DNA of 48,262 bases from Shigella phage Sd1 (MF158042), one strand, 5' to 3'. Positions 3,923-39,174 are shown, counted from the stretch's first letter. Translations and numbers: made by a program. Notes: generated by a model from the letters alone, not told the origin.

Positions 3923-3965
3923 ATAATACACCACCTCACCGATTCGTCTTTAGCAATTCGTGCTA
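3923..3965 (-). promoter_or_regulatory. Palindrome-type promoter P2 (tagcaattcgtgcta, 22-bp spacer, TATTAT)
   Basis: Same architecture; site overlaps VRR-NUC stop codon. Confidence 0.55.
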
Positions 3966-4382
3966 TTTTGAAATCATTTCTTTGAATGCCGCAAGAAAAC
4001 CTTCACGCCCATAAGCCACAGCTGCGAAACCCCCTGCTTCCCTTACGCTTTTTAAGAAAGCCTTTTGGTCTTCACTGACTGGACTAGCCTGAGTTTTTCC
4101 CGCCCTCTTTAGCTCTATAGCTCCAAATGGATATCTTCCTCGCAATGATTCAGGTATCAGAAAAAAGCAATCTGATACGCCCTTAAGGAGGCCTTTTGCC
4201 GCATCCTTTCTGGCTGCGCACATTGATTTCTTTCCCTCATTAACGGTATGCCAATAGAGAATCTGAGGGTGGTTATACTTAACCCAATCAGAGCAAAAGA
4301 TTTGTTCGTCATCCTCCTTTGGGCATGACTTAACCGGGCCCTGGTAAAACTCAATGTAATCCTCTTTATCTGTAATTTTCAT
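3963..4382 (-). CDS. VRR-NUC domain nuclease
   Basis: Translation contains GVSDCFFLIPE...GAIELKRAG...SEDQKAFL pattern typical of VRR-NUC; start at MKITDK with ggagg SD. Confidence 0.6.
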   Translation of the reverse strand: MKITDKEDYIEFYQGPVKSCPKEDDEQIFCSDWVKYNHPQILYWHTVNEGKKSMCAARKDAAKGLLKGVSDCFFLIPESLRGRYPFGAIELKRAGKTQASPVSEDQKAFLKSVREAGGFAAVAYGREGFLAAFKEMISK

Positions 4383-4383
4383 C

Positions 4384-6378
4384 TCAATCCTCCATAGTAA
4401 AAGATTTGTTTGCAATGATATCCTGACCTTTCTGATTTTTTCTGTGAGTCACCCGCAATGGCTCACGAAATTGACTTGCGTTAGTCATAATCATTCTTGC
4501 ATTACGCAGTCTCCCGATTCTAAATGCCTCCGCTTTGTTCTGTATGTGAGTCTGACAAAATGCTTTCCACTTAACAGAGCAAACACGATGGTCACTTTCT
4601 GGAAAAAATGTTTCATATGCAATGAACTTTTGACCATTGTGCGCCATGATTTCATAACGAGCAACTATGCCAGTTTGGTTTTTAGTTAGGCCAATGCTAA
4701 ATCCGTAAACTCTCAACCAATCCCCTTGGCGATACATCTTTCCCGAAAGTTTGGCGTTAGGGTCAATAAGCATTTCACCACAGCATCTACAGTTTTTGGC
4801 AACTATGTCGTTTTTCTCACCGCAGCCTTTCTTTAATATAACCTTTGTCTGCGGGTCTTCAATGTCATCGCAAGTACGAAACTGAAAAAAATGCTCACAC
4901 CTTTTACCGTCGATAACATTATTACAACGACGAGCAGAAGGAGAGTTCTCATAGCTGCAAGCTGGACATATTCTTGGCTCTTCACCACCCTTACGAGAAG
5001 ACTTGAATTTCTGGTCCTGAACCTCCTCTATGATTGGGTCAAAGTATAATTCTGCCATGTCATCAAGAGTGCCTGCGAAGTCCAATACCACATGATCTTC
5101 TTTAACCATACCCATTTCTTTATGCTTCTTCTTGAGTATACGCATACCACGACCAAGAAGCTGAATAAGCAATGTGATGCTGCCAACCTTGCGAAGAATT
5201 ATTGACGTATCCCACGGTGGGACATTTACGCCGGTTGTGAGGCATCCAATCTGGAAAATGAATTTATACTTACCCTCAGATGCGTCGGATAGAATCTCAC
5301 GGCGTTTTTTCTCCCCCGTGGAGTCGGTTACTATGGCCCAGGTTACACCCTTAGGGAGTGCAGCAGCAGCCTCTTCGCAATGACGCTTACCAGAGCAGGT
5401 AACAAGCGCCGCGTTCCTTGTCTCCATGAACTTTGCTGCAAACTGCATAATCTTTTGTGTCATAGACTGACTCTGGTGAATCTTCTCCTCCATTGCGTTC
5501 AGGTCTTTCTTGCTGAAGTCTTTAATTCCATCATCACCATCTGGCGTAAATTCTGTAAGGTCATAACCCAAATCACCAACCTCGCCGTAAACGGTTGGGA
5601 CAACGAAACCCAAGTCAACCAGGTAATTGGTTGGAACCTGCATAACCGTCTTACGCCAAAAACCTCGAATATTAGGATTACTGACCACTATGTGATTATT
5701 ATCACGGTATGGGCTACCAGTAAGGCCAAAGATACGTAGTTCGCGCTTGTATTTCTCACGGCAACGGCGTTTCATCTCACTTATGATTAATGTGTACTGA
5801 GATCGACCTGTACCAGTTAAGCCCGTATACTCACCATCCTTAAAAACCATCTCACCTTTTGCCGTGCTCATTTGCTCAAACGTTTCTTCGTTCTCTTCTG
5901 CCTCGACAATATCCATGTGATCCACCATATGACACTCATCTATGGCTATTACAGCAGGAACGTAGTCACCAAGCCCCTTAAACAATCCGTTGGCTGCTGT
6001 ACCCTCACTAGCAACTATGGTTTGGTAATAAACTGATTTAACGTTAAGTCCGGCGCAATAGACGCTGTTACGGATACCGAAATTACGAAGCTCTTCTGAG
6101 TTCTGGCTAATTATCTCTGACTGGCGAGAAAGAACCATGTAAGGCAAGCCCAATTGCTCCATGCGCTTACCAATCATAGCAAGAATGATTGTCTTACCGG
6201 CAGACACAGAAAGGTCGGCGATAAATGGTGCCTCGTACTTGCCAATAGCCTTACCAATCGCATCAAATGTTACGCACTGAAAATGATAAGGAGTTACCTC
6301 ACCGAATGAGTAGTCCTTCTGAATCTCTTCAATGCGTTTTTTGTCAAAATTAGCAACCAGTTTCTCGATAGGCAACAT
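4384..6378 (-). CDS. ATP-dependent helicase (SF2, DEAD/DEAH-like) with C-terminal Cys-rich zinc-finger region
   Basis: Walker A SAGKT, DECH box (IDECHMV), C-terminal CPACS...C..C clusters. Confidence 0.7.
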   Translation of the reverse strand: MLPIEKLVANFDKKRIEEIQKDYSFGEVTPYHFQCVTFDAIGKAIGKYEAPFIADLSVSAGKTIILAMIGKRMEQLGLPYMVLSRQSEIISQNSEELRNFGIRNSVYCAGLNVKSVYYQTIVASEGTAANGLFKGLGDYVPAVIAIDECHMVDHMDIVEAEENEETFEQMSTAKGEMVFKDGEYTGLTGTGRSQYTLIISEMKRRCREKYKRELRIFGLTGSPYRDNNHIVVSNPNIRGFWRKTVMQVPTNYLVDLGFVVPTVYGEVGDLGYDLTEFTPDGDDGIKDFSKKDLNAMEEKIHQSQSMTQKIMQFAAKFMETRNAALVTCSGKRHCEEAAAALPKGVTWAIVTDSTGEKKRREILSDASEGKYKFIFQIGCLTTGVNVPPWDTSIILRKVGSITLLIQLLGRGMRILKKKHKEMGMVKEDHVVLDFAGTLDDMAELYFDPIIEEVQDQKFKSSRKGGEEPRICPACSYENSPSARRCNNVIDGKRCEHFFQFRTCDDIEDPQTKVILKKGCGEKNDIVAKNCRCCGEMLIDPNAKLSGKMYRQGDWLRVYGFSIGLTKNQTGIVARYEIMAHNGQKFIAYETFFPESDHRVCSVKWKAFCQTHIQNKAEAFRIGRLRNARMIMTNASQFREPLRVTHRKNQKGQDIIANKSFTMED

Positions 6379-19200: not shown

Positions 19201-19646
19201 CCATTCTCTTCTTGCTTAACGAGCCTAGGCCAGAACAGCTTAACGCGGATTGCTGAAAGCTGACTGTTGTTAACTGCGATGATGTAAGGTGTATCATTGT
19301 TAATCTCACGACTAACCTGAATCTCGGATGCTGCACCATCTAGTCCTGATATGTAATCTTGAGATTGAGTGCCCGGGCGAAACTCAGCGGTTACACCTTC
19401 ATAGTTGAATGAGTTGTCCTGGTTCTGCACTGGAACATCAGCAAGGTAAACATCCTTTAGTGAGAAGCTAGAATCAACCTCACCATCAGCAACCGCAAGC
19501 AGAACCTTAATCTTGTTTAGTGAAATCAGGTTATCTTCTTGCTCTACAGGCGTGTGCGGCTTCTTGCTACCACCCTTGCTTCCATAAATCTTTGGCAAAT
19601 CGGCCATATCATATAACCTCGTTATTTGTTTAACCATTTGTGCCAT
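16251..19646 (-). CDS. Tail tip / host-specificity protein (lambda J-like, 1131 aa)
   Basis: Very large protein directly downstream of I/K/L/M-like genes; size and position typical of central tail fiber. Confidence 0.7.
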   Translation of the reverse strand: MAQMVKQITRLYDMADLPKIYGSKGGSKKPHTPVEQEDNLISLNKIKVLLAVADGEVDSSFSLKDVYLADVPVQNQDNSFNYEGVTAEFRPGTQSQDYISGLDGAASEIQVSREINNDTPYIIAVNNSQLSAIRVKLFWPRLVKQEENGDLNGTTCEYAIDLSVNGSAYTEYTRGVANGKTTTGYDRSIRVNLPAEFSSALVRIRKLTPDSTSSTMVNGMQITTYQEVIDAKFRYPLTALVYVEFSSDLFPNGIPTIAIKKKWKLIRVPTNYNPETRTYSGTWNGTFKMAWSDNPAWVLYDLVVSQRYGLDQRELGVEIDKWGLYEAAQFCDQMVPDGKGGLEPRYTCNVVMQQKVEAYQLIRDICSIFRGLTFYDGEQIGIVVDRPRQPSYVFTNDNVVNGLFNRTFSSDKSLYTTANVQFDDEQNNYQQDVEPVFDLEATRRFGYNPVDLTAIGCVRRSEANRRGRWLLKTNLRSETVTFTTGLEGMIPMIGDVIAVNDQAWSSNYTLNLSGRIVKATGLQVFVPFAIDADPGDRILINKPDGSPEYRTIASVSADKLTLELNTAFSFTPQPDTVFAIDKQNLALQQYVVTGIQKANTDGEDSFQYSITAVQYDPNKYDEIDYGVNIDDRPTSIVDPDRILPPENITVTSYSKVVQGLSVETMVIGYDKVQYAKTYNVQWRKNNGNWINVPETANTEVDIEGIYAGIYDVRVRAVTDQKSVSAWSDITTVSLTGKIGEPSAPPVITASDDEVFGIRVKWGFPNDSADTAYTELQQVPDNGDGTYNPENASLLTLVPYPQYEYWHTTLPAGNVRWYRARIIDRIGNVSPWTDFVRGMASDDVSAIIGEIKVDIENSDGYKYLLQNAIDANTDIQNQAEAIIENALANDTDVRVMKRENGARKAEYRQAVSLIADETQARVDALTELKAQIDDEIVGQITTIETALATETEARATADTQLSARLGDNEAALNQKLDSYATVEGVGVQYGVKLGLKYNGVEYGAGMSMELTGSGGNVRSQFIFDANRFAISNGISSGSGQWSLPFVVDNNQVFIQSAVIQDGSITNAKIGGAIQSNNFVANNTGWRLDKAGTFENNGSTAGEGKMKQTNQTISVADANGRLRVQIGRLTGVY

Positions 19647-19651
19647 TCTAC

Positions 19652-19682
19652 ACTAAATAAAAAACCCGCACTAGGCGGGTTG
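19652..19682 (-). terminator. Rho-independent terminator after HNH gene, immediately upstream of J start
   Basis: acccgc/gcgggt stem followed by TTTTTATTT on the minus strand. Confidence 0.6.
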
Positions 19683-19687
19683 TGATT

Positions 19688-20176
19688 TTACTTGCCGTGC
19701 CTCTCAGTGTATTCACCGTTAAGGTTCTCCGCGCTCTTCCTGGCGCACACAGCCTCAAACCAATCATCAAATAGACCTAAATGTTTTCTCTTTTTGTTTA
19801 TTGATATAGTAACCCACCACATTCCAGTTAGCTTGTGAAAACCCACTCCTGCAACGCCACTCTTGTTGTCAGACCTTTTTGACCTGTTTTTTGAGTTTAT
19901 AGATGAGGATACGACTCTTAAGTTTTCAGCTGAGTTATCTAATCTATCTCCGTTTATGTGGTCAATCTCCATGCCATCTGGAGGCATCTTGAACCCATTC
20001 CTAAGATACCAAAGTATCCTATGCGATGCAGTTTGCTTATCATTTAGCTTCACATACCTGTATCCAGAATGATGGATGAATCCAGCCTCAACTCCTATGT
20101 TTGCTGCGTTATTTCTTGCTGACTTCCAATAAAGTTTTCCGTCAATCTCGTAGAGGTAATCCTCGAATCTCTGCAT
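19688..20176 (-). CDS. HNH endonuclease with AP2-like DNA-binding domain (homing-endonuclease-like)
   Basis: MEIDHINGDRLDNSAENLRVV (HNH motif) followed by GVAGVGFHKLTGMWWVTISINKKRKHLGLF (AP2-like). Confidence 0.7.
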   Translation of the reverse strand: MQRFEDYLYEIDGKLYWKSARNNAANIGVEAGFIHHSGYRYVKLNDKQTASHRILWYLRNGFKMPPDGMEIDHINGDRLDNSAENLRVVSSSINSKNRSKRSDNKSGVAGVGFHKLTGMWWVTISINKKRKHLGLFDDWFEAVCARKSAENLNGEYTERHGK

Positions 20177-20233
20177 TTTAAGTCACCTAAAGAATAAATC
20201 CTGAGGTGACTGTAATGCAGAATGATTCAATTA

Positions 20234-20815
20234 TCAAGAAATATCTTCACTATAACTTCCTGCCGAAAACACAGCACCACCAACCGTCCGATATCCATAA
20301 GGTAAGCAAACCGGGTTTCCTGCTGCAATGGTGTTAACCGCCGATCCGAATGCGTATGAAGCTCGGTTACTCGTTTGTGATGCCTGGTCATTCAATCCCG
20401 TAGCCTGTGGGGCAAGCAACTGCGATACACCACCAGCTGCAAGTCCAATACCAGCAGTAAGAAGAACTGTAGCCGCACCACCAGTAAAGATAAAAGAAGC
20501 ACCAATCAATGCAGCGCCAAGTAGTGTTTGAAACAAACCGCCAGACTTGCGACCTTGAGGGATTGGCATAATCCTAATCTCTCTAACCGCTGAGAAATCA
20601 GATAGCCTGTGCTCATTAAGATTCTTGCCATCAGCGAATACTGCAAACCTTGTGTTCTGGCCCACATGACTACCCATGAATTCTTTAAAAGCTGGGTAGT
20701 TAATGCATAATGCTCGCAGAGCTTCAGGTACGGACTTAACGCAGAGTTTGTGCACTCGCCCAAACCTGCGCCCCAAACCTAATCCCAACTTAACATCAAT
20801 CACGTTCTGGGTCAT
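20234..20815 (-). CDS. Tail assembly protein (lambda I-like)
   Basis: Position after K-like gene; C-terminal Gly/Ala-rich hydrophobic segment; ATG with ggagg SD. Confidence 0.5.
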   Translation of the reverse strand: MTQNVIDVKLGLGLGRRFGRVHKLCVKSVPEALRALCINYPAFKEFMGSHVGQNTRFAVFADGKNLNEHRLSDFSAVREIRIMPIPQGRKSGGLFQTLLGAALIGASFIFTGGAATVLLTAGIGLAAGGVSQLLAPQATGLNDQASQTSNRASYAFGSAVNTIAAGNPVCLPYGYRTVGGAVFSAGSYSEDIS

Positions 20816-21542
20816 AACCCGCATCCTCCGGTAAATCTTTATGTCTTACGATTCGTACAGTCCTCTCACGATAGTAATCGCCGTACAAATCAACCTTGCT
20901 CATCTTACCATATAAATGGTGCAGAATTTTATTGTCACCAATGTAGATTGCGGCGTGGTTTGTCTTCTCGCTTTGAATCTGCATCATAATCATTGATCCA
21001 ATGGGAATGTCATTACCCATAACTAATTCGAAACCCTCTAACTCCCAGTTGTCATCGTAGATATTGTCAGTGTATTCATTTGTCCACCATTGGTAATCAA
21101 CTCGATAATCATTCAGCTTAACTCCATAATTGCCGTGGTAAGCCATAATAAGACCCCAGCAATCGAAGCTACCCAAACCCCAAGGTCTGCCAGCCAGAGG
21201 CATTTTTTCAGGCTGAAGAACTCGCAAATCACCCTCAGGGATACTAACAATAATATAAGGCAGCTCACACTCGTTACAGCTACAGATATCGGCTGCGCTT
21301 GGTATAGTCGTAGCGCCGTCGCCAGTATGAGAGTGAACAACATAAACCACATTACTTTCATCTGAAATCTCCATGAATTCTGCTGGGTCAAGAATGAATG
21401 ATTGCTCGGGTGTTTTGGATACGTTTGTAATCCTGTGATACTTCTGCGCCATTCCCTTTTGAGTTACAACCCCGCAAGATTCCTGCGGGTAAACCTCGTT
21501 TGCGTGTCGAAATATTTCGAGTTTGCATTTTGGTGTTAACAT
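20796..21542 (-). CDS. Tail assembly protein (lambda K-like; JAB/MPN plus NlpC/P60-like)
   Basis: HSHTGDG metal-binding-like motif and Cys/His residues in C-terminal half; position between L-like and I-like genes. Confidence 0.6.
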   Translation of the reverse strand: MLTPKCKLEIFRHANEVYPQESCGVVTQKGMAQKYHRITNVSKTPEQSFILDPAEFMEISDESNVVYVVHSHTGDGATTIPSAADICSCNECELPYIIVSIPEGDLRVLQPEKMPLAGRPWGLGSFDCWGLIMAYHGNYGVKLNDYRVDYQWWTNEYTDNIYDDNWELEGFELVMGNDIPIGSMIMMQIQSEKTNHAAIYIGDNKILHHLYGKMSKVDLYGDYYRERTVRIVRHKDLPEDAGYDPERD

Positions 21543-21553
21543 TATTACCCCCC

Positions 21554-22318
21554 TTAGTTTTGGTTTGCTTTCGCTTGCAGGCTTGCAGCAGCACAGCCGC
21601 CAAAATCTAATTGATTGTTAGCACCGAACCTTAACTTACAGGCGGTCACGGTTCCAGCGCAGAAGTCTTGAGATGGGTCAGTCACAGGCGCGTTGTCCTT
21701 ATCGAAATATCGAGTGCCCATGTAGTTACATCCATTCCCTGAGCGGTAAAGTCCTCGCTGAGCCCAATAACAAACAGACTGAACCAGTCGCGCAGGAATG
21801 TAAATGCCATCCATATCCATTGGGCTAGTTAGTTCAAATGACGCCGTGTTATAGTCAACCTGCTTCGGTCGCTCAATGAAGTAAACCAACTTACGGTAAT
21901 CCCCATCAGCAATGGTGCCATCTTCGTTAATGTTCTCTCGAAGTGTGATCCAGATAGTAACCTTGGCCTGAACAAGCCCGTTGTAAGTGCGGATAAGCGC
22001 CGAGATGTTTTGGTCAACGTTTGATACAACCAGCGTTACCTTGTTTGCCTTTCCGTCAGAAGTCATGTTAATTCCCTGAATACCGAAAGGCCTAGCACCG
22101 TACTCCTCACCTCTGAAAGTTATTGTCTTTGCTGGTAGCGGCTGACCAGTTGACTGAGCCATCATAATCTCTTCAGGTGTATAGCTGATGTTCTCCCCAT
22201 GAAAGCGATAAATGCGCCCTCCAAACTTGCTGCCGTCCACTTCAATTAGTGTAACAACCTCACCAGGGAACAAGCTTTGTAATTGATTCTCAAACTTAGT
22301 GCTTAATGGCGTTGCCAT
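21554..22318 (-). CDS. Minor tail protein (lambda L-like)
   Basis: Position and size; start at MATPLS with ggag SD. Confidence 0.55.
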   Translation of the reverse strand: MATPLSTKFENQLQSLFPGEVVTLIEVDGSKFGGRIYRFHGENISYTPEEIMMAQSTGQPLPAKTITFRGEEYGARPFGIQGINMTSDGKANKVTLVVSNVDQNISALIRTYNGLVQAKVTIWITLRENINEDGTIADGDYRKLVYFIERPKQVDYNTASFELTSPMDMDGIYIPARLVQSVCYWAQRGLYRSGNGCNYMGTRYFDKDNAPVTDPSQDFCAGTVTACKLRFGANNQLDFGGCAAASLQAKANQN

Positions 22319-22330
22319 AATATTTCTCCA

Positions 22331-22353
22331 ATAAAAAGGGCCCTGTAGGGCCC
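22331..22353 (-). terminator. Intra-operon hairpin terminator (gggccc-tgta-gggccc)
   Basis: Perfect 6-bp GC stem followed by TTTTTATT on the minus strand. Confidence 0.55.
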
Positions 22354-22364
22354 ATATTAACACT

Positions 22365-22715
22365 TTATGTCATGCTAGTAAAAACTTCGGTAAACTTCAT
22401 TGATACAGTCTGCACCTCCCTGGTATTTGGTGTAACACTGATGCTGTCCTGTGCCACAACAAACAGCTTAAGATCACCCTGTGGAGTTGTCCATGCAAAA
22501 GGGGTGATGATATGCGCAAAGCAGAAGTCCAACACTTCCTTCCAGTTGGTGTTGGTGTAGGTCATGTTGTAGGTTCTGACGTTTGTGTTATATCCTCCAC
22601 TTCCAATCTGCCTGTAACCATTACCGAATGAAACACTCCTTACATTGCTTGCGTTGGTAAATGATCCGCCGCCATTTTGAACCTGTGTACAAAAAGTAAA
22701 AGTATCTAATGCCAT
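22365..22715 (-). CDS. Minor tail protein (lambda M-like)
   Basis: Size and position directly downstream of tape measure gene. Confidence 0.5.
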   Translation of the reverse strand: MALDTFTFCTQVQNGGGSFTNASNVRSVSFGNGYRQIGSGGYNTNVRTYNMTYTNTNWKEVLDFCFAHIITPFAWTTPQGDLKLFVVAQDSISVTPNTREVQTVSMKFTEVFTSMT

Positions 22716-22746
22716 TTAAAATCCTTAGAGGCCGAAGCCCCATTTA

Positions 22747-25713
22747 TTAACTATAACCACGCAAGAACTGGTAAGCAGTCCCGCCTTGCTGGAAGGATTG
22801 AGTAATCTCTTCCGCGATGATAACCCTGATACCAGATTCTAACTGTTTAGCGTCATTACCGGCACCACCACCAAGACCTGTCTGAACGGTAACATTCACG
22901 CCACCGACATTAACATTGCTTCCGCTAACAAGTCCACCAGTCGCATATCCAGGACCAGAACCGACAATACCTCCGTTTGCGTACCCGCGCATCAGCTTGT
23001 ACAGGTTATCCACACCAATCCTTGATGTTGCCTCTTTTGTGAATACAAACTCTCCACGATGAACTGTGCCTGCTGGCTCATATTTTCCACCATTACCAGT
23101 GTAGCCGCCAGAGGCAAAGCCAATAGAGCTAGCAATAGAGCCAATCGCGCCGCCACTACCACCAAAACTTGAGATGGTTGACTCAATTGCCTTAATCAAA
23201 AGAAGCTGAGTTGCAATGCGTGCAATCTGCTTCAAAATTGACGCGGTAAACTCACGGAAGTTGGCCTCTCCAGTAGTTACCAGGTTTGTGATCTGGTCAG
23301 TCAATCCATTGAATGCGCTCATTGCTAGCTCAGAACCAATCTGATTGAAGTTTGCTAATTCATCAGCAGTCTCAGCGAACGCAGACTTAACACCAGCTAG
23401 CCAGTTGCCACGTAACGCGTCCTCCTGGTTGTAGAAATTCTGACGAGCCTGAAGTAAAGCCTGGAAGTCAGTGTCATCTACGGAGCCTCCTTTAGAAACC
23501 TGCTGTGCTTCTAGCGCTGCCAACTCACGCCGCCTTTCAGCTTCACGTTGAGATAATCCAGCGCCAGTACTAATTGATGCCGCTTCAGCGTTAATCTGTC
23601 GAGTTTTCTTGATATTGTCATCAAGCAACTTATTGGCGCGCTCCTGCAATACAATCTGATCACCAAGCTCAGCCTTCTCTCTAGCAAGGCCAAGAATCTT
23701 ATCCTGCTGAAGTAGTAACCTTCGCTGCTCCTTTGTAATGGTGCCATCAGCAAGCCTTTCATTGAGGATAGCAAACTTAGCCTCTTCTGCGAATAGCTGC
23801 TTTCGCTCGTTACTGATTACATCACTAATCTGGCGGTGCTCCTGAAGAACCTTAAGCTGCGCCTGAAGAGCTAAAACGCCTGACTCGTAGCTGATTGTAA
23901 GGTCCCTCTGGTCCTTAACTCCTTGCTTTCTCTTCTTGTTTGCCTCCTCAATATCCTTAAGCTCCTGCTCCCTGGCCTTTCTGCGCTTCTCGAACTCAGC
24001 ATCGGATTCACCAGTTCTCTGCTGCTCTTCCTGGGTTGGGGTAACGTAACCAAGTTCACCCTTGCGAATCCTTGCATCACGTTCCGCTACGGACTTAACT
24101 AACTCTTCATTGGCTTTCTTAATTCCCTCATTCTGCTTTTCGAACTGCTGAACTAGCTCACTACCAACTCCATCAGCGCCAGGGATATTCTGGAATGCTT
24201 TAATTGTTGAGATCAGGAAGTTGTTGATCAGAACATCACCCTGGCCAATCAGCAACTGAATCTGCTCAATAGTACCAGCAACAACGTCTACTATAAGGTT
24301 TAGTGCGCCAAGCGTCCTGTTCCCGATATCCGTCCAAACCCGAGAAACGAAGTTTTTGAAGCTATCCCAAGCCTTCTCAAGCGGCGTTAGAGACTCCGCG
24401 ACTTTTGTTAAGCGATTCTCCATTACATCAGCAAATAGCTTAGTAGCCGCCGTTACAGCCTGCGTCTGACCCTCTGTAACCCTAATTTGCTCGATGTACT
24501 TAAGCTGGCCAGCGGTTAAGAAGTTAAACTGCTTATCAAGTTCAGCCAGGCCTTTGACCGGGTCATTTGCGATTTTATCGAAGTTCTTAACGATATCATC
24601 AGCGGAATCACCAGTGACTGTGGCCCAGCGCGCAGTCGCCTCAGTAATAATTGAAATCTGAGCTACCGTGCGGTTCCCACTTGCGACCAATCCATTAGCA
24701 ATCTCGTGGCCAAGACCTTGAGTTGCGCCTGCAGCCTCAGCCGCATTCCTTGCCAGTTTCTGAACTGCGCCAGCTGATAAGTTCGCTGATTGCCCGGTCA
24801 GGGTAAGCGTCTGGTTTAGCTGTGAAGTGTTCTGATAAGCCTGATAAGCAGACAATCCCAGAGCACCAAGAGCAACACCGAGAGCTCCAGCTGCGACAAC
24901 GAACGGGTTTAATGCAGCAAGTGCAAACCTGAATGTATTCGCTACGCCTCCAAAGCTATCCTTAATCTGACCGCCTTGCTGAATTGCGATTAGCCAGATT
25001 GGAATGCCGCCAGCTAATGAAGTTCCAATATCTGTAATCTGCGCTGGCAGCGTACGGATTGCGTTCTTATACTGCCCCACTGATAATCCAGAGCGCTGCA
25101 ATGCCTGAGATTGCCTTGTTAATGCTGCTGCGGATTGGTCAGCTGCCGCTCCGATTTGTGCAATAATTGGCGCCGCCTGGCTTGAAACTCCTAACTCTGC
25201 CGCCCTTAACTTTAACAACTCCTCGCGAGTTAATGTTGCCGCCTGGGCCTCAGCTTGTAGTGACTTAAGGAATCTTTCCGCTTGGGTTGCAGCTTGAGCC
25301 TTGGCTTTTGAAGCCTCGATTGCAGCCCTGCCTTCCTCAGTCAATGCGCGCTGTGAATTACGAAGCCTGTTAGTCTGAGTCTCCAGAGCCTCGCTTAAAC
25401 GGTAGAATTCAGCTTCAGGAATAACGCCAGCGGAGAAGGATTTATCCAGTGCGTCAGCTGCTTCCTGCAGTTTGCGAAGCTTTCCTGCGGTTGGATCAAT
25501 TGCGGTTTGCAACTGACGGAATGCTGTTCGCTGCTCAGAAAGATATCTGGCAGTATCGCGAGCCTGATTCTTCGCAACCAGCTCGGCGTTGACGAACTCA
25601 CTAACACCAGCTGCCGCCTGCTCATTGGCACGTTTAAATTCTTGCAGGGACTTTGTGCCCTGGTCAACCTGGCGAACGTCAACGCCAAGTGTGATACCTG
25701 CAAATTCTGCCAT
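22747..25713 (-). CDS. Tail tape measure protein
   Basis: About 990 aa, Ala/Gln/Leu-rich coiled-coil composition, follows G/GT chaperone; start at MAEFAGI with ggagg SD. Confidence 0.75.
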   Translation of the reverse strand: MAEFAGITLGVDVRQVDQGTKSLQEFKRANEQAAAGVSEFVNAELVAKNQARDTARYLSEQRTAFRQLQTAIDPTAGKLRKLQEAADALDKSFSAGVIPEAEFYRLSEALETQTNRLRNSQRALTEEGRAAIEASKAKAQAATQAERFLKSLQAEAQAATLTREELLKLRAAELGVSSQAAPIIAQIGAAADQSAAALTRQSQALQRSGLSVGQYKNAIRTLPAQITDIGTSLAGGIPIWLIAIQQGGQIKDSFGGVANTFRFALAALNPFVVAAGALGVALGALGLSAYQAYQNTSQLNQTLTLTGQSANLSAGAVQKLARNAAEAAGATQGLGHEIANGLVASGNRTVAQISIITEATARWATVTGDSADDIVKNFDKIANDPVKGLAELDKQFNFLTAGQLKYIEQIRVTEGQTQAVTAATKLFADVMENRLTKVAESLTPLEKAWDSFKNFVSRVWTDIGNRTLGALNLIVDVVAGTIEQIQLLIGQGDVLINNFLISTIKAFQNIPGADGVGSELVQQFEKQNEGIKKANEELVKSVAERDARIRKGELGYVTPTQEEQQRTGESDAEFEKRRKAREQELKDIEEANKKRKQGVKDQRDLTISYESGVLALQAQLKVLQEHRQISDVISNERKQLFAEEAKFAILNERLADGTITKEQRRLLLQQDKILGLAREKAELGDQIVLQERANKLLDDNIKKTRQINAEAASISTGAGLSQREAERRRELAALEAQQVSKGGSVDDTDFQALLQARQNFYNQEDALRGNWLAGVKSAFAETADELANFNQIGSELAMSAFNGLTDQITNLVTTGEANFREFTASILKQIARIATQLLLIKAIESTISSFGGSGGAIGSIASSIGFASGGYTGNGGKYEPAGTVHRGEFVFTKEATSRIGVDNLYKLMRGYANGGIVGSGPGYATGGLVSGSNVNVGGVNVTVQTGLGGGAGNDAKQLESGIRVIIAEEITQSFQQGGTAYQFLRGYS

Positions 25714-25722
25714 GTAACCTCC

Positions 25723-25756
25723 ATAAAAAAACCTCCACAAAGGGAGGTTATTTTTG
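25723..25756. terminator. Hairpin (acctcc-N6-ggaggt) between GT and tape measure genes
   Basis: GC stem with A-run and T-run on either side; overlaps stop codon of the GT frame. Confidence 0.5.
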
Positions 25757-26409
25757 CCTTACTTGCATCATCTCAAGTGCTTTGCACTCCAGTATTCGCA
25801 AGTCATTTAAAGTCATCTCTTTGTCCTTGACATTATACACATCAAAGAGGAAAGGGAGTACTGAATAATCTATTCCGGTAGCGCCGCTCATACCTACACG
25901 CCATTGAGTTGAAGCTGCCTGATAAACATTCCATGCAAGCATCATGTCATCATCGAAGTATAACTCTTCCGGCTCCTCATCTTCATAATCGGAACGCCGC
26001 ATGCCAATAGCTTCAAGTTCGGCGTCCGTTGGCTCTCTTTGGTATTGTAGATATACAGCGCGTTTTAGTTTTTTGCTCGCTGACCCGCCAAAGCCTGCAT
26101 ATAAGCGTTAGTCAGTGCCAGGACGGATGCCGGGAACAGGGATACCAGCTCTTCGATGTTCTCGTCGTTGAATTCTTCTTCAAGGTTCCAACCGCTGCAA
26201 ATCTCTTTAACAAAGTCAAAGTCCTTAAGGCCTTCGGTCTGGAATACTTCCTGAATCTCTTTAGCCTTGCGATGCTTTGCTGTAAAGATAACCTCAGCTT
26301 CTTCTCCGTTAATCATCTGGAATTTTACAGGTAACTTGAAGTCAGGCAATGCGCCAAGTTTGAGTTTGAATTTTGCCATTTTTATTACTCCTCTCGTAAG
26401 TTGAAGCAT
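25748..26409 (-). CDS. Tail assembly chaperone G-T fusion made by programmed -1 frameshift
   Basis: Slippery heptamer A_AAA_AAC (minus strand, about 26068-26074) immediately before the G stop codon; the -1 frame is open from there to 25748. Confidence 0.55.
26065..26379 (-). CDS. Tail assembly chaperone (G-like)
   Basis: Small acidic protein between major tail and tape measure genes; start at MAKFKL with gaggag SD. Confidence 0.6.
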   Translation of the reverse strand: MAKFKLKLGALPDFKLPVKFQMINGEEAEVIFTAKHRKAKEIQEVFQTEGLKDFDFVKEICSGWNLEEEFNDENIEELVSLFPASVLALTNAYMQALAGQRAKN

Positions 26410-26413
26410 GATT

Positions 26414-26444
26414 ATAAAATAAAAAAGCCCTCATTGCGAGGGCC
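26414..26444 (-). terminator. Rho-independent terminator after major tail protein gene
   Basis: gccctc/gagggc stem followed by TTTTTTATTTT on the minus strand. Confidence 0.65.
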
Positions 26445-26451
26445 TTGTAAC

Positions 26452-27102
26452 TTATGCTGCCAGGAAGCTGTAGCGTCCACGTACCGTAATTGCTACGGAT
26501 ACAGTTTCGATTTCGTTAACGCTTACATTTGGAGTTTCGTTGAAAGCAACGGTACCAGTCCACAGGCGAACTTCGCTAGCTTTTGGTACATATGCACGAA
26601 TCGCAGTAACCTTGCCACTTTCATCCAGTTCACGAAGAATTGGGTAGATTGGGTTATTGTATTCATGAGCAAAGGTATAAGTCGTGTTTACTGCAGACTT
26701 GTAGGTAGGAATCTGCTGTTCACGGTCATCGCTCAAGCACTGATAGGTAACGAACTGCTGCTCACCACCGTCAGTAGAAACATCCTGAATACAAGGCATT
26801 TCAAACCAGGTGAGAACCTTGGCGATAGTTGCCGTGCCACCAGCCGGGAATTTCAGGGTTGAAGTGGTGTCGATACCTTCAACAGTGATAGTCGTAGAAG
26901 TGGTAGACACTACGCGAAGCTGCTTATCAGCCAGGTTAGACCAGGTTGCAGATTCAACAACAATGAAATCGCCAGTTGCGAAAGTTGAAGCATCAGCAAC
27001 CGTCATTACCGGCTGAACTGCGTTGGTGATTGCTGTAACATTTACCGCGTCAGAGCGCGAACCCTCAATAAAAATTTGACTGCCATTTGCAAGGTGAGCC
27101 AT
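26452..27102 (-). CDS. Major tail protein
   Basis: Position upstream of G/GT and tape measure; Thr/Val/Ser-rich beta composition. Confidence 0.6.
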   Translation of the reverse strand: MAHLANGSQIFIEGSRSDAVNVTAITNAVQPVMTVADASTFATGDFIVVESATWSNLADKQLRVVSTTSTTITVEGIDTTSTLKFPAGGTATIAKVLTWFEMPCIQDVSTDGGEQQFVTYQCLSDDREQQIPTYKSAVNTTYTFAHEYNNPIYPILRELDESGKVTAIRAYVPKASEVRLWTGTVAFNETPNVSVNEIETVSVAITVRGRYSFLAA

Positions 27103-27116
27103 TTAAATCTCCTTAA

Positions 27117-27515
27117 TTAATCCATACGTACGTAGAATCGGACAGGAATGAACCAGCCGGATTGTGATTTTACTGGAGGAAACACAGAACCGCCTTCATA
27201 AATGTATCCGCTGTCAAGCATTGTACCATCGGCGAAAGCTTCTGACAATCGCCCAGCCAATTGGCGAGGCCTATCAGTGCCCTCACCTGGTGAAAAGAAT
27301 ATAGAGACCTGAACCATGCCTACGTAATAACGGCATGTTCGCTGCAATCCCCATGTCACGCTATCAACCTCCGTGTAGTCAAACTTCAACCACATAGAGC
27401 CATTACTAGGTGGCGTGAATCCGCAGTTCTCATAAGCCACTGGAAGCCCACCTGCAATATCAACCGCTGCATCACTAACCAGCTTTCTTGCCGCTACCAT
27501 CATTTCATAGTGCAT
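27117..27515 (-). CDS. Putative tail terminator/completion protein
   Basis: Position immediately upstream of major tail gene. Confidence 0.4.
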   Translation of the reverse strand: MHYEMMVAARKLVSDAAVDIAGGLPVAYENCGFTPPSNGSMWLKFDYTEVDSVTWGLQRTCRYYVGMVQVSIFFSPGEGTDRPRQLAGRLSEAFADGTMLDSGYIYEGGSVFPPVKSQSGWFIPVRFYVRMD

Positions 27516-27933
27516 TTGACTTTTTCCTTATAGCGTCATTAAAGTAAAAACCAAGCCTCTTAGTGACGATACCAAGGACTCCGTTTGGCGCCTGACCAGA
27601 ATAACCAAACTCCAATGGAACTGCATATGTTAGCGCGTTTGTGATATATATTGTATGAGTAGCTTTATCCCTAGCCAGGGCGTGAATCTGCCTTCTTAGT
27701 GACCTAATTGTGTCTGCCCCATCCTTGTCATAGTTGTTCAAGCTGATAAGTGATGGATTGTTTCCAGTAGCCTGCCAGTTACCCTTAAACCTTCCTGTAT
27801 CAACCGGAGATAGCTTGACGATATCCCTTGCAGCGTCATCAAGGGCGTCATCGATAATCTCCGGAATTGCTTCCATTACTGAATCGGCCCAATCATTAAT
27901 CTTTAGCTTAAACAGAAGATTATCATTAGCCAT
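27505..27933 (-). CDS. Tail completion protein (HK97 gp10-like)
   Basis: Segment SPVDTGRFKGNWQ resembles HK97 gp10 family signature. Confidence 0.5.
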   Translation of the reverse strand: MANDNLLFKLKINDWADSVMEAIPEIIDDALDDAARDIVKLSPVDTGRFKGNWQATGNNPSLISLNNYDKDGADTIRSLRRQIHALARDKATHTIYITNALTYAVPLEFGYSGQAPNGVLGIVTKRLGFYFNDAIRKKSNAL

Positions 27934-28303
27934 AAGTTGCAGCCCTCCGTAGTACTGGCCTGTAGGCGATTACAGTTCCAGTTGGCTTCACTGGTCGAGG
28001 GTCAATTACTGTGTAGGCTTCCTGGTCGATGTAGATGCGGTCACCTTCCGATACAACTGAATCAGCAGTAAAAATTCCGCGACGGTCACCGAATTTGATG
28101 ATGTCACCGTCAATGTCTCGCGCTTTGAATTCACGGATAACACCCCGCACAGTATATGAAGTCCCAGGTGCGCGCACTTCGTAGCCATTCACGATGGAGA
28201 TGGTTGGTTGGGTTGTGGCTTCGAAAACTCCATCACCATCTGACAGGAGATTAATGCCAGCTTTAATTTGCTGTTGCAAAAGTGCGTGATTCATCGGCAG
28301 CAC
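27926..28303 (-). CDS. Putative head-tail joining protein
   Basis: Position between connector-like and tail completion genes. Confidence 0.4.
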   Translation of the reverse strand: MLPMNHALLQQQIKAGINLLSDGDGVFEATTQPTISIVNGYEVRAPGTSYTVRGVIREFKARDIDGDIIKFGDRRGIFTADSVVSEGDRIYIDQEAYTVIDPRPVKPTGTVIAYRPVLRRAATYG

Positions 28304-28692
28304 CTCGACCCACCAGAAGTAATCAAACCCCAGCGGCCAACTTTGCGACGCATTAAATCAATGTAAAGCTTACCCCATGAGGACGCCTCAAGGTTAGATG
28401 AGCTCGCGGCGGCGGTGCTTGTGTCGTAGCTAATCGTGTACTCTCCGGAAAGGGAGTAGGACTTAACCCGGTCAGAGGATGTCTGGCTTGAATCATTCTC
28501 AGTCTTAAGTGCAATGTCCTGGCTAAGCAAGTGGAGCGTGTAGAACGCCAATGCTGGAACCTGCTTGTCGCCAAACTTATCTAGACAGATAAAAAGCTTT
28601 GCCACCTCAATCCATGCGTTAAGAACATCATCAGGCTGGTTGTTCAGCGGCGGGTACAGCTGTCTCATATACGCAATTACTTCTTCATTCAT
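28291..28692 (-). CDS. Putative head-tail connector protein
   Basis: Position after capsid gene set. Confidence 0.4.
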   Translation of the reverse strand: MNEEVIAYMRQLYPPLNNQPDDVLNAWIEVAKLFICLDKFGDKQVPALAFYTLHLLSQDIALKTENDSSQTSSDRVKSYSLSGEYTISYDTSTAAASSSNLEASSWGKLYIDLMRRKVGRWGLITSGGSRCCR

Positions 28693-28705
28693 GTGATATC
28701 TCCAT

Positions 28706-28735
28706 ACAATAAAGGACGCCGAAGCGCCCTTTTGG
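28706..28735 (-). terminator. Weak hairpin terminator (minus strand)
   Basis: 7-bp stem with one G-U pair and ttcg loop followed by T-rich tract. Confidence 0.3.
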
Positions 28736-28736
28736 T

Positions 28737-29033
28737 TTATTTGTAGTCGCCGCCATTCTCAGCTTCATCAATAGTCTTTGGTTGCTTCTTAGGCTTAGCC
28801 TTGTCTTTAACTTCCTGCTCGATTTCTTTAGTTGCCTTGTGGTCATCCTCAACCTCAAGCTTGCCTTCAGCTACCAAAATCTTTAAGCCAACGGATAACT
28901 CCTCAACCTCGATAGTATCGCCTGGAAGATAATCTTTTGCGCCAAGACGGATAACACAAGCACCTTTATGTAACAGTTTCATTCTTTCCTCCTTTGTTTC
29001 GATTTTCAAATGATAACACACAAACTTAATCAA
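28737..29033 (-). CDS. Hypothetical protein
   Basis: ORF with Lys/Glu-rich C-terminus. Confidence 0.35.
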   Translation of the reverse strand: MIKFVCYHLKIETKEERMKLLHKGACVIRLGAKDYLPGDTIEVEELSVGLKILVAEGKLEVEDDHKATKEIEQEVKDKAKPKKQPKTIDEAENGGDYK

Positions 29034-29616
29034 CTAAAGAGTCTCTGTTGTGATCATCAATCCTCGCGTACTCCCCGTTCAGCTCAATGCTTTTCATCAT
29101 GTATGCGCTCGCAGCCTCTTCTGGAGTAAGGAAGCAGCCTATGTGAATCTCCTGGTAATTATGCGTAATCCTTGCCGTCCATTTACCTATCTTTTTATTG
29201 TACCTCACACCTTTTATGCCGCTAGTGTTTGTTGAGTACTTACCCTTGTTTGCTGAGTTAGCTTTCGTGCTAGAGTCCCTAAGGTTTTCTATCTTGTCGT
29301 TTAGGCTATTGCCATCAACATGATCTATCTCACCGCAAGGCCATCTTTTATTGTGTATAGCCCACTTCACCCTTGATGCTATGAATGTTCTATCTTTCCC
29401 GTCAACCCTCATTGAGAAAACAAATCTCAGAGAGCCATCGGATGTACTAACCGACTCACACCCAACATATTTACCAGCATATTTTGCATTGAATATTGAG
29501 TCACCCCTGCATGTTACAACCCTACTGCGCCAAGTCATTCTGGATTCGTTTGGGTTGGATTCAATCCGGCTAATTAAAAGCTCCAGCAAATCATCTGTTT
29601 CTAACTTTCCCGCCAT
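29026..29616 (-). CDS. HNH endonuclease with AP2-like domain (second paralog)
   Basis: GEIDHVDGNSLNDKIENLR (HNH) followed by GIKGVRYNKKIGKWTARITHNYQEIHIGCF (AP2-like); ggaggg SD. Confidence 0.7.
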   Translation of the reverse strand: MAGKLETDDLLELLISRIESNPNESRMTWRSRVVTCRGDSIFNAKYAGKYVGCESVSTSDGSLRFVFSMRVDGKDRTFIASRVKWAIHNKRWPCGEIDHVDGNSLNDKIENLRDSSTKANSANKGKYSTNTSGIKGVRYNKKIGKWTARITHNYQEIHIGCFLTPEEAASAYMMKSIELNGEYARIDDHNRDSLVD

Positions 29617-29640
29617 TTTAAACCCTCCGATTTTCTATAG

Positions 29641-29668
29641 ACAAAAAAATAGCACCCCGAAGGGTGCT
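29641..29668 (-). terminator. Rho-independent terminator after major capsid gene
   Basis: gcaccc-cgaa-gggtgc stem followed by TATTTTTTT on the minus strand. Confidence 0.6.
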
Positions 29669-29689: not shown

Positions 29690-30637
29690 TTAAGCAAAAG
29701 TAATGCCCTTCATGACAGCCATCGTTAAAGGCCTAAACACGATCAGACCAGTTGCTTTAGAAGTCACTGGAACGCGGAAGTGCAGGTCTCGCGGCTGAGC
29801 AGGCAGAGCGTTTGTCGGCTCGGTGATCTCGATCGCCATGTTGTTAGCGTCTTTCTCATAAGCGATAGCTGCAGAGGTACCAGTTCCATTGTAATCATTC
29901 AGGTACTGAACAAACTCAACGGTTACGCCGCTATTGTTCTGGCGGAAGAATTCACCATAGCTAACAGACGTGCCAGGAACCAGGTTCTGCATAATACGAC
30001 GAGCGGTAGTAGGAAGAAGCAGGTGCGTAGCGCGGTGCTGACCGTTAGTTGAAGTCTCGATAATATCCAGCAGGCTTGTAATATCGCTTACCGCTGTAGT
30101 AGGTTGAGACCATGAGCCACCGCTAACAACGTTGTTGATATTTGGATAGTCGAACACGCTAGGGATTCCGTGAACGGTAGAGCCTGACCATACCAGTTTA
30201 TCAAGAAGCTTGTCGTGCGCTTCGAAAGCCAGAGACTGCTTGCGAGCAGACAGTGACTGACCAGTAGCCTGACCAACTTTAATTTCATCGATAGAAATCA
30301 GGAAAGCGTTACCGAAACGGAAAACTTTACCCTGGCGTTCAGTTGCCAAAGCATCAACCAGCGGCAGGTCATCAGTGTAGTCAGCTACGATCTGAGCAAT
30401 TCCAACACCATCAAATACCGGATACTCAAAGTACTTAGCGTAGCCAGGGATTTCATTGCTAACAGGGAACAGGTTTACTACGGAGTTCTGATCGTACTCA
30501 GTTTCGTAAGCTTTATTCAGGCTTGCAGTGAGCTGCTTCACGGTCCAGATACCAGCCGCGTCGGCTTTATCAACACCCATTGCGCGCAGGTGGTTAGTAA
30601 TCTTTTCTTGCTCGAAAGCGTCAAGTTTGATAGTCAT
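29690..30637 (-). CDS. Putative major capsid protein (start uncertain, 30637 or 30649)
   Basis: About 315 aa; sits in head module downstream of protease/scaffold and small Gly-rich protein; followed by strong terminator. Confidence 0.5.
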   Translation of the reverse strand: MTIKLDAFEQEKITNHLRAMGVDKADAAGIWTVKQLTASLNKAYETEYDQNSVVNLFPVSNEIPGYAKYFEYPVFDGVGIAQIVADYTDDLPLVDALATERQGKVFRFGNAFLISIDEIKVGQATGQSLSARKQSLAFEAHDKLLDKLVWSGSTVHGIPSVFDYPNINNVVSGGSWSQPTTAVSDITSLLDIIETSTNGQHRATHLLLPTTARRIMQNLVPGTSVSYGEFFRQNNSGVTVEFVQYLNDYNGTGTSAAIAYEKDANNMAIEITEPTNALPAQPRDLHFRVPVTSKATGLIVFRPLTMAVMKGITFA

Positions 30638-30736
30638 ATTAAGATGCATCCTTTTGTTTATGAGTTTACGTGTCAATTATACACGAGATTTTGATTGGAA
30701 CAATAGGCGATTCCTTTCGCCTTTAACTTTAATCCA

Positions 30737-32212
30737 CTATGCGAGAGGTTTGCTTAGGTTTTCCACCTTATAAGCGTAAACGCCTGCCAAAGTATCAGAT
30801 GAGTTCCTTATTCCAACTATTGTAAGCTTGAAGCATTTAGAGTCAGCCGTAGCTCCTGGTGATGTGGTTATGTAATGCTCAGATGTGACTCCAAAAACGC
30901 CTGGCTTGAATACGCTATTCCAAAGAGCGGCCCCAGGAGGCATGCTTGTTACTATCGCTGTGTAGTTTTTCAACTTATCAGCTGCAACTGTAGTGAGTGA
31001 GTCAATCTGGTATGCAGTGTGCCTTATTGAAGCGATATTTGCTGTACCAGTATTACTAACACCAACCCATAAACCCTTGGCTGGAACTGTGGCGTTCTTC
31101 TCTCCGGTAAGGGCGAACCTTATTGTTGTCTCTCCGGGTATATCTATAAAGTCAGTATCCGTCTGATTGATCAACCCCGACCTTACGCCTGAAGCTACGT
31201 TATAAGAGGCTGGACCAGCCACCCCCTGTAAGCCCTGAGGTCCCGTAGGGCCCTGCAATCCACGCTCACCCTGCGGGCCTGCCGGGCCTTGTGGTCCAAC
31301 TGCACCAGCTACACCTTGTAAGCCTTGCGGGCCGGCTGGGCCTTGCTCACCTTGCAGGCCCCTCTCGCCTTGTGGGCCTTGAATACCTTCCGGACCTGTC
31401 GGGCCAGTTGGGCCTGCTGGACCAGCGGAACCCTGTGGGCCTGGGGCACCCTGTGCGGCCAGTAACTCCCAGGAATCGCTAACATCTGGATTTTCTCCGG
31501 TCACGGCGGCGGTAGCAAACCAGCTAGAGTTGTTAAATGTAACGACATCATCTTTAACGTAAGCTGTCGCAGCGTCGTACATCCCGCGGAATGTTAAGCC
31601 TGCCGGACCAACTGGACCCGCATCACCTTTATCACCTTTAGGGCCGGCCGGACCTGCTGCGCCGGTTGCACCGATAGGGCCTTGCGGACCAGACTCGCCA
31701 GTTTCACCTTGAGGACCTTGCGGGCCTACGGGGCCAGCTGGACCAGTGTCGCCTTTGGCACCTGCCGAGCCTGCCGGGCCGGTAGCACCTGTTGGGCCTT
31801 GAGGACCCTGTGGACCAATAGCTCCTGCCGGGCCCGCTGGACCCTGTGGACCAACCGGACCTTGCGGGCCTGCTTCACCTGAGCCTCCTTCTTCATCACT
31901 TACAAAATCACCTTTCGCCAGCGCTGAAAGATAAGCACCATCTTCGAAGTGGGCATTGCCAAACCTGCGCCAGCCCTGGGCTAGATATCTGTTAACCCTG
32001 TTAACTAATCCCTGAATTGTGGTATCGGATGTCACCATGAAGTCTTCAACGTTGTTTGCTGTTCCTTTCGCCATCTTCATGCCAAAGAGGGTGCCGCTCA
32101 GCATCTGCACGTCGCCATATGGCTGGAATCCTGATGAAATCATGATTTTTACGTTTCTGGCTAAGATTTCAGGTGAATTCCCTACTGCCATAGCAATTTC
32201 TGTGTAAGCCAT
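30737..32212 (-). CDS. Collagen-like repeat protein (two Gly-X-Y tracts)
   Basis: Two long uninterrupted G-X-Y runs ([16 protein letters not shown]... and [22 protein letters not shown]...) flanked by globular N- and C-terminal domains; aggag SD. Confidence 0.8.
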
Positions 32213-38658: not shown

Positions 38659-39174
38659 TCATAGCTTCTCCATAATAGATTCAAGTGCGGCCTTCATAGC
38701 TTCCTCGTCGTTAACTACCGCATTAGAAGCGTTGTTGATGTTAACCTCTTGCGGCTTGTCGATACCAAGGTCTTTGCCAATCAGTCCAGGGTTGACGATG
38801 TTGTTAACACCCAGCTGATACTTCTGCTCAAAGATGACCGAATCCACAAACTCCATCACCTCATCGAATCCAGGCGAAGATCGCCATTTACTAATGGCAT
38901 TATGACCTACACCGCAGAAAAGCTGGAAGCCAGTTATCGTAAATACTCTCGGCTTGTGAATAAGGTTTTCTGTTACGACGCCCTGAAAGCTAGCCGTTTC
39001 AATGGCCTTAATCGCTTGCTCTTCAGCCCAGCTGAAATACCTGACGGCCATGTCGAATACCTGTTCAGGGGTGTACCTGTGGTTAATCTTCAGATTGGCA
39101 ATATCGCCATACTTCTTGTTATACAGCTCCTTGAAGTTTCCTATCTTCTGGTGAATCTTTTTCTCTTCTGGCAT
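38659..39174 (-). CDS. Putative terminase small subunit
   Basis: Position immediately upstream of TerL; 171 aa. Confidence 0.4.
   Translation of the reverse strand: MPEEKKIHQKIGNFKELYNKKYGDIANLKINHRYTPEQVFDMAVRYFSWAEEQAIKAIETASFQGVVTENLIHKPRVFTITGFQLFCGVGHNAISKWRSSPGFDEVMEFVDSVIFEQKYQLGVNNIVNPGLIGKDLGIDKPQEVNINNASNAVVNDEEAMKAALESIMEKL

Follow-up and report, generated by a model that had tools for sequence, protein, structure and literature searches.

The two HNH-type open reading frames (ORFs) of Shigella phage Sd1 (MF158042) described here are very probably free-standing homing endonuclease genes of the phage HNH(N)-AP2 class, lodged in slots of the late structural operon. The window, that is, the whole stretch of DNA that was analyzed, is the complete 48,262-bp genome of this T1-like phage. 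The first gene, HNH-1 (19688 to 20176, minus strand), encodes 162 amino acids and lies between tail genes I and J; the second, HNH-2 (29026 to 29616, minus strand), encodes 196 amino acids and is flanked by the major capsid gene and a DUF7444 gene. Both were proposed in an original prediction made from the sequence alone, and its coordinates, its strand assignment, and the core of its free-standing HNH-AP2 homing endonuclease reading agree with the domains, the precise empty sites, and the site fidelity reported below. Its placement of HNH-1 between I-like and J-like tail genes was correct, as Lambda_tail_I and a J-like ORF flank the gene; its placement of HNH-2 next to the major capsid gene also stands, and the other neighbor is the DUF7444 gene. 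Alleles that lack the insert precisely were found in related phages at both loci; the original prediction had named the absence of such empty-site variants as a refutation, and this refutation therefore fails. Alignment to these empty alleles showed that the genes on either side of both inserts are intact and their reading frames unaltered; both inserts are independent ORFs in intergenic slots, and neither sits within an intron or intein.

We looked at the domain content of the two proteins with profile searches, alignments, and structure predictions. Both matched the Pfam family HNH_3 (HNH-1, 55.0 bits; HNH-2, 28.3 bits; cutoff, 24.8), and both fell over their full lengths into the PHROGs family phrog_99, “HNH endonuclease” (HNH-1, 1.5e-55; HNH-2, 3.2e-47). 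Aligned with each other, they were 42% identical across 113 amino acids (E = 2e-19) and had in common the EIDH...ENLR nuclease motif and a C-terminal LNGEY, so that the HNH motif and the shared elements originally read from the sequence are upheld by Pfam, PHROGs, and alignment alike. The residues D74, H75, N87, and N96 of I-HmuI (PDB 1U3E), a nicking homing endonuclease of the HNH/HNN type from Bacillus phage SPO1, correspond in the alignment to D72, H73, N85, and N94 of HNH-1, and the equivalents of these catalytic and metal residues in HNH-2 are D98, H99, N111, and N120. The catalytic D-H...N...N positions were invariant in the two homolog alignments (A4, 84 sequences; A5, 62 sequences) on which the structure predictions for both proteins were based.

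The predicted structures were confident models for both proteins, with a beta-beta-alpha-metal fold and, at the C terminus, an AP2-type fold (the GCC-box-binding domain, a three-stranded sheet on a helix). The AP2 domain had been claimed for both proteins, and the fold was indeed predicted in both, but a Pfam signal was obtained for HNH-2 only and was borderline there (PF00847; cutoff, 33.3 bits; whole protein, 33.2 bits; domain on its own, 34.4 bits). The HNH-2 domain also gave sequence matches to the plant AP2 structures WRI1 and TEM1. For HNH-1, Pfam found no AP2 domain, even at E values up to 10; the HNH-1 AP2 domain has drifted below Pfam detection. The two proteins are thus His-Me-finger nucleases of the HNN type, each with an AP2 fold; cleavage, its specificity, and mobility are inferred for both enzymes.

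At the I/J site, alignment with the empty alleles of AHP24 and AHP42 and with the occupied allele of Rao1 placed the HNH-1 insert after the gene I stop codon and before the I-J terminator. Empty I/J alleles are present in close relatives (AHP24, AHP42, JK06, Rogue1, and others), and the 241-nt empty I-J junction was contiguous in 112 phage records. A sliding comparison of Sd1 with empty-site AHP24 gave 90 to 100% identity on both sides, right up to the insert, with a 40/40 match directly after the HNH-1 stop codon. Sd1 switches from the AHP24-like type to the HNH-bearing Rao1-like type just across approximately 20265 to 19688, a segment made up of the insert and some 25 nt of gene I. In this gene I 3′ end (20234 to 20262, minus strand), the last eight codons are nearly all synonymous variants relative to the empty AHP24 allele. 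The empty-site phage Phagiculus has the same variant codons, except for the final Ser codon and the stop, and it is these two alone (AGT TAA to TCT TGA, 20239 to 20234) that track the presence of the HNH gene. The variant gene I end is thus better described, from these alignments, as a short mosaic or possible co-conversion tract. The donor of the Sd1 copy of HNH-1 is not among the sampled genomes.

DNA-level orthologs of HNH-1 were found in five records (IME253 twice, ZL19, phiA2-1, and Rao1), all at I/J, and metagenomic proteins 73 to 88% identical to HNH-1 were all encoded between Lambda_tail_I and J-like genes. Overall, the HNH-1 clade (65 to 88% amino acid identity) always occupies I/J, in divergent phages as well as in metagenomic contigs. 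Family relatives that are at most 50% identical occupy other sites: some separate the terminase subunit genes, and others adjoin a tail-terminator or a helicase gene. These results identify I/J as the site of a single faithful clade.

The capsid/DUF7444 site has a different history. The insertion there comprises about 620 bp (about 29016 to 29635), as judged by alignment with the Sf12 allele, which is empty, and with those of Rogue1 and C119, and is bounded by the T tract of the capsid terminator on one side and by the sequence preceding the AAGGAGG of the DUF7444 gene on the other. Empty alleles were seen in Sf12, JK06, and phiJLA23; among the records that could be aligned across the site, about ten were empty and six carried other HNH genes. 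The HNH-2 leader (29617 to 29635, minus strand), with its Shine-Dalgarno (SD) sequence GGAGGG (29628 to 29623), lies within the inserted segment and is common to the C119 occupant. HNH-2 itself had no nucleotide match in 50,697 phage records, and the 2,554 phage records retrieved with it by tblastn were all below 41% identity. Among 5.8 billion clustered proteins, two were about 50% identical to HNH-2 and, besides HNH-2 itself, none exceeded 51%. Both of these relatives, for which values of 47 to 49% were also obtained, are encoded directly upstream of a DUF7444 gene, one of them with the 3′ end of a capsid gene and its terminator immediately upstream. Rogue1, C119, and Rao1 hold other HNH lineages at this site, and a pairwise matrix showed that the site is occupied by at least four deeply divergent HNH lineages (25 to 49% identical); Rao1 has HNH genes at both junctions, already named “HNH homing endonuclease.” The capsid/DUF7444 junction is therefore a hot spot of T1-like phages, with at least four lineages of endonuclease gene that appear to have replaced one another.

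The block directly 3′ of HNH-2 (29001 to 29016, minus strand) differs in Sd1 from both the empty and the other-occupant alleles: it reads TATCATTTGAAAATCG in Sd1 and TATAATCAAACAATCG in the others, with 5 of 16 positions changed. Within it, an element directly after the insertion point (29008 to 29015, minus strand), TATAATCA, is mutated to TATCATTT in Sd1 but conserved in the alleles compared (L004, L005, L006, L012, and L013), both the empty one and all those with a different HNH occupant. The element may serve as a −10-like signal at which transcription of the head-completion genes restarts, or it may belong to the target of an endonuclease; the junction differences are candidates for either target-site divergence or loss of a −10-like element.

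The two Sd1 genes had been called paralogous, a term that holds at the level of the family but not in the sense of duplicates. Over their whole lengths HNH-1 and HNH-2 are 36% identical, which the pairwise matrix showed to be no closer than random family members, and each is closer to, or no further from, the same-site genes of other phages than its partner. Because the two are no more alike than random members, these comparisons point to independent acquisitions.

We also evaluated the terminators next to the two genes, each of which had been said to be followed by a terminator of its own. The I-J intrinsic terminator (19651 to 19681, minus strand; stem, 19681 to 19663; T tract to about 19653) does follow HNH-1. 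Its sequence is identical in empty-site AHP24 and AHP42, and it is annotated as a terminator in AHP24, a genome that has no HNH gene; it is therefore ancestral and not the gene's own. It is also kept with few substitutions in SU57, Rtp, Phagiculus, and Rao1. At the other site, the intrinsic terminator of the major capsid gene (29651 to 29668, minus strand) is likewise ancestral, as the empty Sf12 allele has it and so does every occupied allele, and it lies upstream of HNH-2, just past the capsid stop codon. A terminator scan found no terminator-like structure between the HNH-2 stop codon and the next start codon (28982). Alignment to the empty alleles thus rules out that the HNH genes brought terminators with them.

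The start of J can be reconsidered in the same light. The statement that J lacks an SD sequence had rested on the ATG of the longest ORF (19646), which lies 6 nt past the T tract and has none. An in-frame ATG (19607 to 19605, minus strand) is used as the J start in five of seven annotated relatives, and the GAGG 9 nt upstream of it (19620 to 19617) is conserved even in divergent Rtp-like phages. J probably starts at 19607, judging from this conservation. Moreover, the sequence from the terminator to past the J start matches AHP24 and AHP42 almost exactly, so that the arrangement of terminator and J predates the insert. J transcription must pass the terminator, but every one of these phages shows this ancestral arrangement, which is unrelated to the insertion; the earlier proposal that J, for want of an SD sequence, depends on a restart does not hold.

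Both insertion points lie about 10 to 35 nt from a GC-rich terminator stem (19663 to 19681, ACCCGCC...; 29651 to 29668, CACCC...GGGGTG), in spacers that are otherwise AT-rich. AP2 domains are reported to favor GC-rich DNA. As a second and weaker possibility, the adjacent stems may form part of the AP2 recognition sites of both enzymes, which, if true, would explain why both inserts are close to a terminator. Terminator proximity is not general, as no terminator adjoins the endonuclease slot that AHP42 has at its L/K tail gene junction.

A further feature of the HNH-1 insert is the palindrome upstream of the gene, which had been described as a palindrome-type promoter and is best read instead, from folding predictions, as a conserved RNA hairpin that would bury both the ribosome site and the AUG. 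The hairpin (20165 to 20228, minus strand) pairs the SD sequence (AGGUGA) and the AUG (20176 to 20174). In its core stem, AGUCACCU (20211 to 20204) pairs with AGGUGACU (20188 to 20181), and in its outer stem, UCUGCAUU pairs with AAUGCAGA. Its minimum free energy was −28.7 kcal/mol (z = −6.5), and none of 200 shuffled sequences was as stable. In the ensemble, the probability of being unpaired was 0.18 to 0.32 for the SD region and 0.02 to 0.13 for the AUG. We folded the leaders of orthologs one at a time, as MAFFT misaligned the divergent ones, and obtained the same fold for Rao1/IME253 and for two further leaders (L014 and L016), with z values of −3.1 to −6.3. Loop length (10 to 15 nt) and outer-stem sequences differ among the orthologs and the pairing is kept; this varying arm spacing disfavors the palindrome as a DNA operator. 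For HNH-2, no comparable SD-sequestering hairpin was found: only the capsid terminator folds strongly there, and the SD sequence and AUG are not clearly occluded.

A sigma70-like element, TTGATA-N17-TACAGT (20209 to 20237, minus strand), accompanies the hairpin; its −35 overlaps the gene I stop codon, and its −10 overlaps the beginning of the 5′ arm. Four divergent leaders retain the pattern TTGAnn-N16/17-TAyAGT, in which the spacer varies and the −10 adjoins the 5′ arm. Were transcription to begin 7 nt past the −10, the hairpin would be lost from the RNA, with the predicted free energy in Sd1 going from −35.3 to −7.6 kcal/mol. The element may therefore be a candidate cassette promoter whose transcript would lack the hairpin 5′ arm. 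We put forward only tentatively, as a possibility on the doubtful side, that the HNH-1 insert is a self-contained expression cassette, with its own sigma70 promoter and with a hairpin silencing translation from read-through RNA of the late operon. If true, a T1-like siphophage, dependent on the RNA polymerase of its host, would have a counterpart of the T4-type promoter-inside-hairpin switch.

The homing endonuclease reading implies the following cycle. In a mixed infection, the enzyme would recognize and cut the gene-free allele of a related phage. Enzymes of the I-HmuI group nick a single strand, and the cut made here would, by analogy, probably also be a single-strand nick. Recombinational repair from the HNH-bearing genome would then place a copy of the gene, with a short stretch of flanking DNA, in the empty site. 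Such intronless homing would explain why the distribution is patchy, why the genes keep to their sites, and why the flanks are mosaic. HNH-1 would probably be kept low on read-through operon transcripts by the hairpin over its SD sequence and AUG, and the weak promoter whose −10 abuts the hairpin may yield an open transcript; HNH-2 would presumably be expressed from transcripts that read through the capsid terminator. A formally admissible alternative to homing is that the genes descended vertically and were precisely lost several times.

Several observations weigh against this reading or parts of it. HNH-2 is labeled merely “DNA-binding protein” in GenBank/NCBI. The recoding of the gene I end, which we considered as a signature of target immunity, is weakened in that role since empty-site Phagiculus carries most of the variant codons, and it is not clean evidence of target-site immunity. 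The sigma70-like element matches the consensus at 9 of 12 positions, and such matches numbered 25 in the region versus 22 expected in shuffles, which is not above chance. Finally, synonymous sites of HNH-1 are saturated relative to its orthologs (dS, the synonymous divergence, about 2), which speaks for long residence in its lineages, and the HNH-1 clade appears to be old.

The same label, “DNA-binding protein,” could be taken to mean that the two proteins are domesticated DNA-binding regulators, in which AP2 controls transcription (e.g., at the adjacent terminators) and the nuclease is vestigial or serves binding only. We regard this as unlikely. The corresponding region in a relative is annotated “putative transcription factor,” and AP2 domains serve as phage-encoded transcriptional silencers in CasPRs (bioRxiv 10.64898/2026.02.23.707548), but CasPRs consist of CapR plus AP2 and have no HNH domain, a difference in architecture that also led us to set aside a CasPR-type anti-CRISPR reading. 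All four I-HmuI catalytic and metal positions are invariant across the family and in both Sd1 proteins. Furthermore, most close relatives are viable and do not have the genes, as would be expected of a dispensable selfish element more than of a regulator of essential late genes. HNH-1 is under strong purifying selection (ratio of nonsynonymous to synonymous rates [dN/dS], 0.036 versus Rao1 and 0.090 versus a metagenomic ortholog); this would suit a regulator, as it would any maintained function.

Purifying selection of this strength on HNH-1 (dN/dS of 0.04 to 0.09 with saturated dS) is harder to reconcile with the two genes being inactive, decaying remnants of past invasions. The homing cycle does predict degeneration after fixation, degenerate HNN-AP2 genes have been described in Xanthomonas phages (PMC2248197), and the AP2 domain of HNH-1 is no longer recognized by Pfam. 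Nevertheless, both frames are full-length with intact catalytic residues and confident models, and the HNH-1 leader hairpin and SD sequence are conserved, and decay on the scale of a remnant is quite improbable. That the proteins are packaging-associated HNH enzymes aiding terminase (HK97 gp74-like) or some other essential morphogenetic cofactor is scarcely credible: the genes do stand within the structural block, and some distant family members lie between terminase subunit genes, but neither Sd1 gene adjoins the terminase genes (small subunit, 38659 to 39174), the proteins are HNH_3 plus AP2 and not of the small PF01844 type, and most close relatives, which are viable phages, have no such gene at these positions.

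Turning to the genome as a whole, Sd1 groups at the DNA level with T1-like phages (Drexlerviridae/Rogunavirinae). Its structural region is 87 to 91% identical to Sf12, the Opt-79/Phleasolo group, Rogue1, phiKP26, and C119, and no near-identical genome was present in the phage collection searched. HNH-1 adjoins tail gene I (Lambda_tail_I, 20234 to 20824) on one side and the J-like tail gene, a 1,131-codon ORF, on the other. The upstream neighbor of HNH-2 is the major capsid gene (29690 to 30676), and its downstream neighbor is the DUF7444 gene (28737 to 28982; 81 amino acids; start codon at 28982). The guanine-plus-cytosine (GC) contents of the HNH genes (0.417 and 0.430) are slightly below those of their neighbors (about 0.47). 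A tblastn search found no third family member in the Sd1 genome. A Pfam scan of ten selected ORFs likewise gave no further member, and the sole other nuclease-type ORF among the ten encodes an unrelated VRR-NUC protein of 150 amino acids (3963 to 4415, minus strand). At 30737 to 32212 (minus strand), a 491-amino-acid protein with long collagen-like Gly-X-Y repeats is encoded (local GC, 0.58, versus 0.445 for the genome); its homologs in Sf12, Rogue1, and C119 are named inconsistently, as “tail fiber protein” or “DNA polymerase.”

Other T1-like phages use a third slot, the junction of the L-like and K-like tail genes, where HNH family members occur in AHP42 (L003, 3884 to 4372) and in Rtp (rtp40; L010, 4875 to 5390) and none occurs in Sd1. 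The tail operon thus has at least three recurrent endonuclease slots. Rtp-like relatives with an HNH gene at I/J also have an opposite-strand Rha-family gene between L and K (L002, 3492 to 3940; L009, 3337 to 3540; L011, 2038 to 2580; L016, 755 to 1252); in Sd1, L and K are adjacent, without a Rha insert. In unrelated metagenomic phage contigs, the large terminase gene is bracketed by two HNH_3 genes, one between the small and large subunit genes and one after the large (L019, 3001 to 3489 and 5116 to 5451; L020, 1147 to 1635 and 3262 to 3753), an instance of endonuclease genes flanking an essential gene.

The phenomenon is ordinary for T1-like phages and leaves the understanding of such elements unchanged; the main value of the analysis lies in annotation and comparative genomics. 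Modestly new are the assignment of an Sd1 “DNA-binding protein” to a rare lineage that appears to be of the HNH-AP2 homing type, insertion points defined to the nucleotide, a faithful clade at I/J versus apparent lineage turnover at the capsid junction, and a conserved predicted hairpin over the SD sequence and AUG in the I/J insert. In addition, the natural pairs of empty and occupied alleles (Sd1 versus Sf12, JK06, or AHP24) are ready substrates for studying the specificity of putative AP2-guided nickases and marker exclusion between therapeutic T1-like phages. A literature search turned up nothing specific on Sd1 itself or on HNH genes in Drexlerviridae.

I-HmuI is encoded in a group I intron, whereas the Sd1 proteins are free-standing; its C-terminal module is a helix-turn-helix, whereas theirs is an AP2 domain. 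Sequence identity is just 20 to 23%, and nicking by the Sd1 proteins is assumed by analogy. In its predicted control, HNH-1 resembles the T4-type systems. Hairpins that sequester the ribosome-binding site control I-TevI, I-TevII, I-TevIII, segB, and Aeh1 mobE (PMC2988022), and in HNH-1, too, a very stable predicted hairpin would hide the SD sequence, here together with the AUG, on long read-through transcripts, and a promoter-like element is present whose transcript would begin inside the hairpin. The T4 cases were experimentally verified and involve T4 late promoters, whereas the putative Sd1 element is a weak sigma70-type match, and HNH-2 has no T4-like leader hairpin.

A further likeness is to the free-standing HNN-AP2 genes of other phages, which have the same layout as those of Sd1, an N-terminal HNN nuclease followed by a C-terminal AP2 domain. 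The architecture is credited to Magnani et al. (2004), as cited in PMC2248197. In Xanthomonas phages, these genes are multicopy, free-standing, and scattered, and T1, Rtp, and T5 are listed as further carriers (PMC2248197); a survey of phage homing endonuclease genes recorded an enrichment next to genes for capsid, tail, and terminase, in many cases with neighboring or replaced occupants of one locus (PMC10448857). Across the known examples (Xp10/OP1/Xop411; T1, Rtp, and T5; and “IPA-HNH” of ICP1), the genes are multicopy, scattered between essential genes, and patchy in distribution (PMC2248197, PMC10448857). Compared with this class, HNH-2 stands out as a rare lineage and HNH-1 by an AP2 domain below Pfam detection, and existing annotations give the name “HNH homing endonuclease” to the HNH-1 orthologs of Rao1, IME253, and ZL19.

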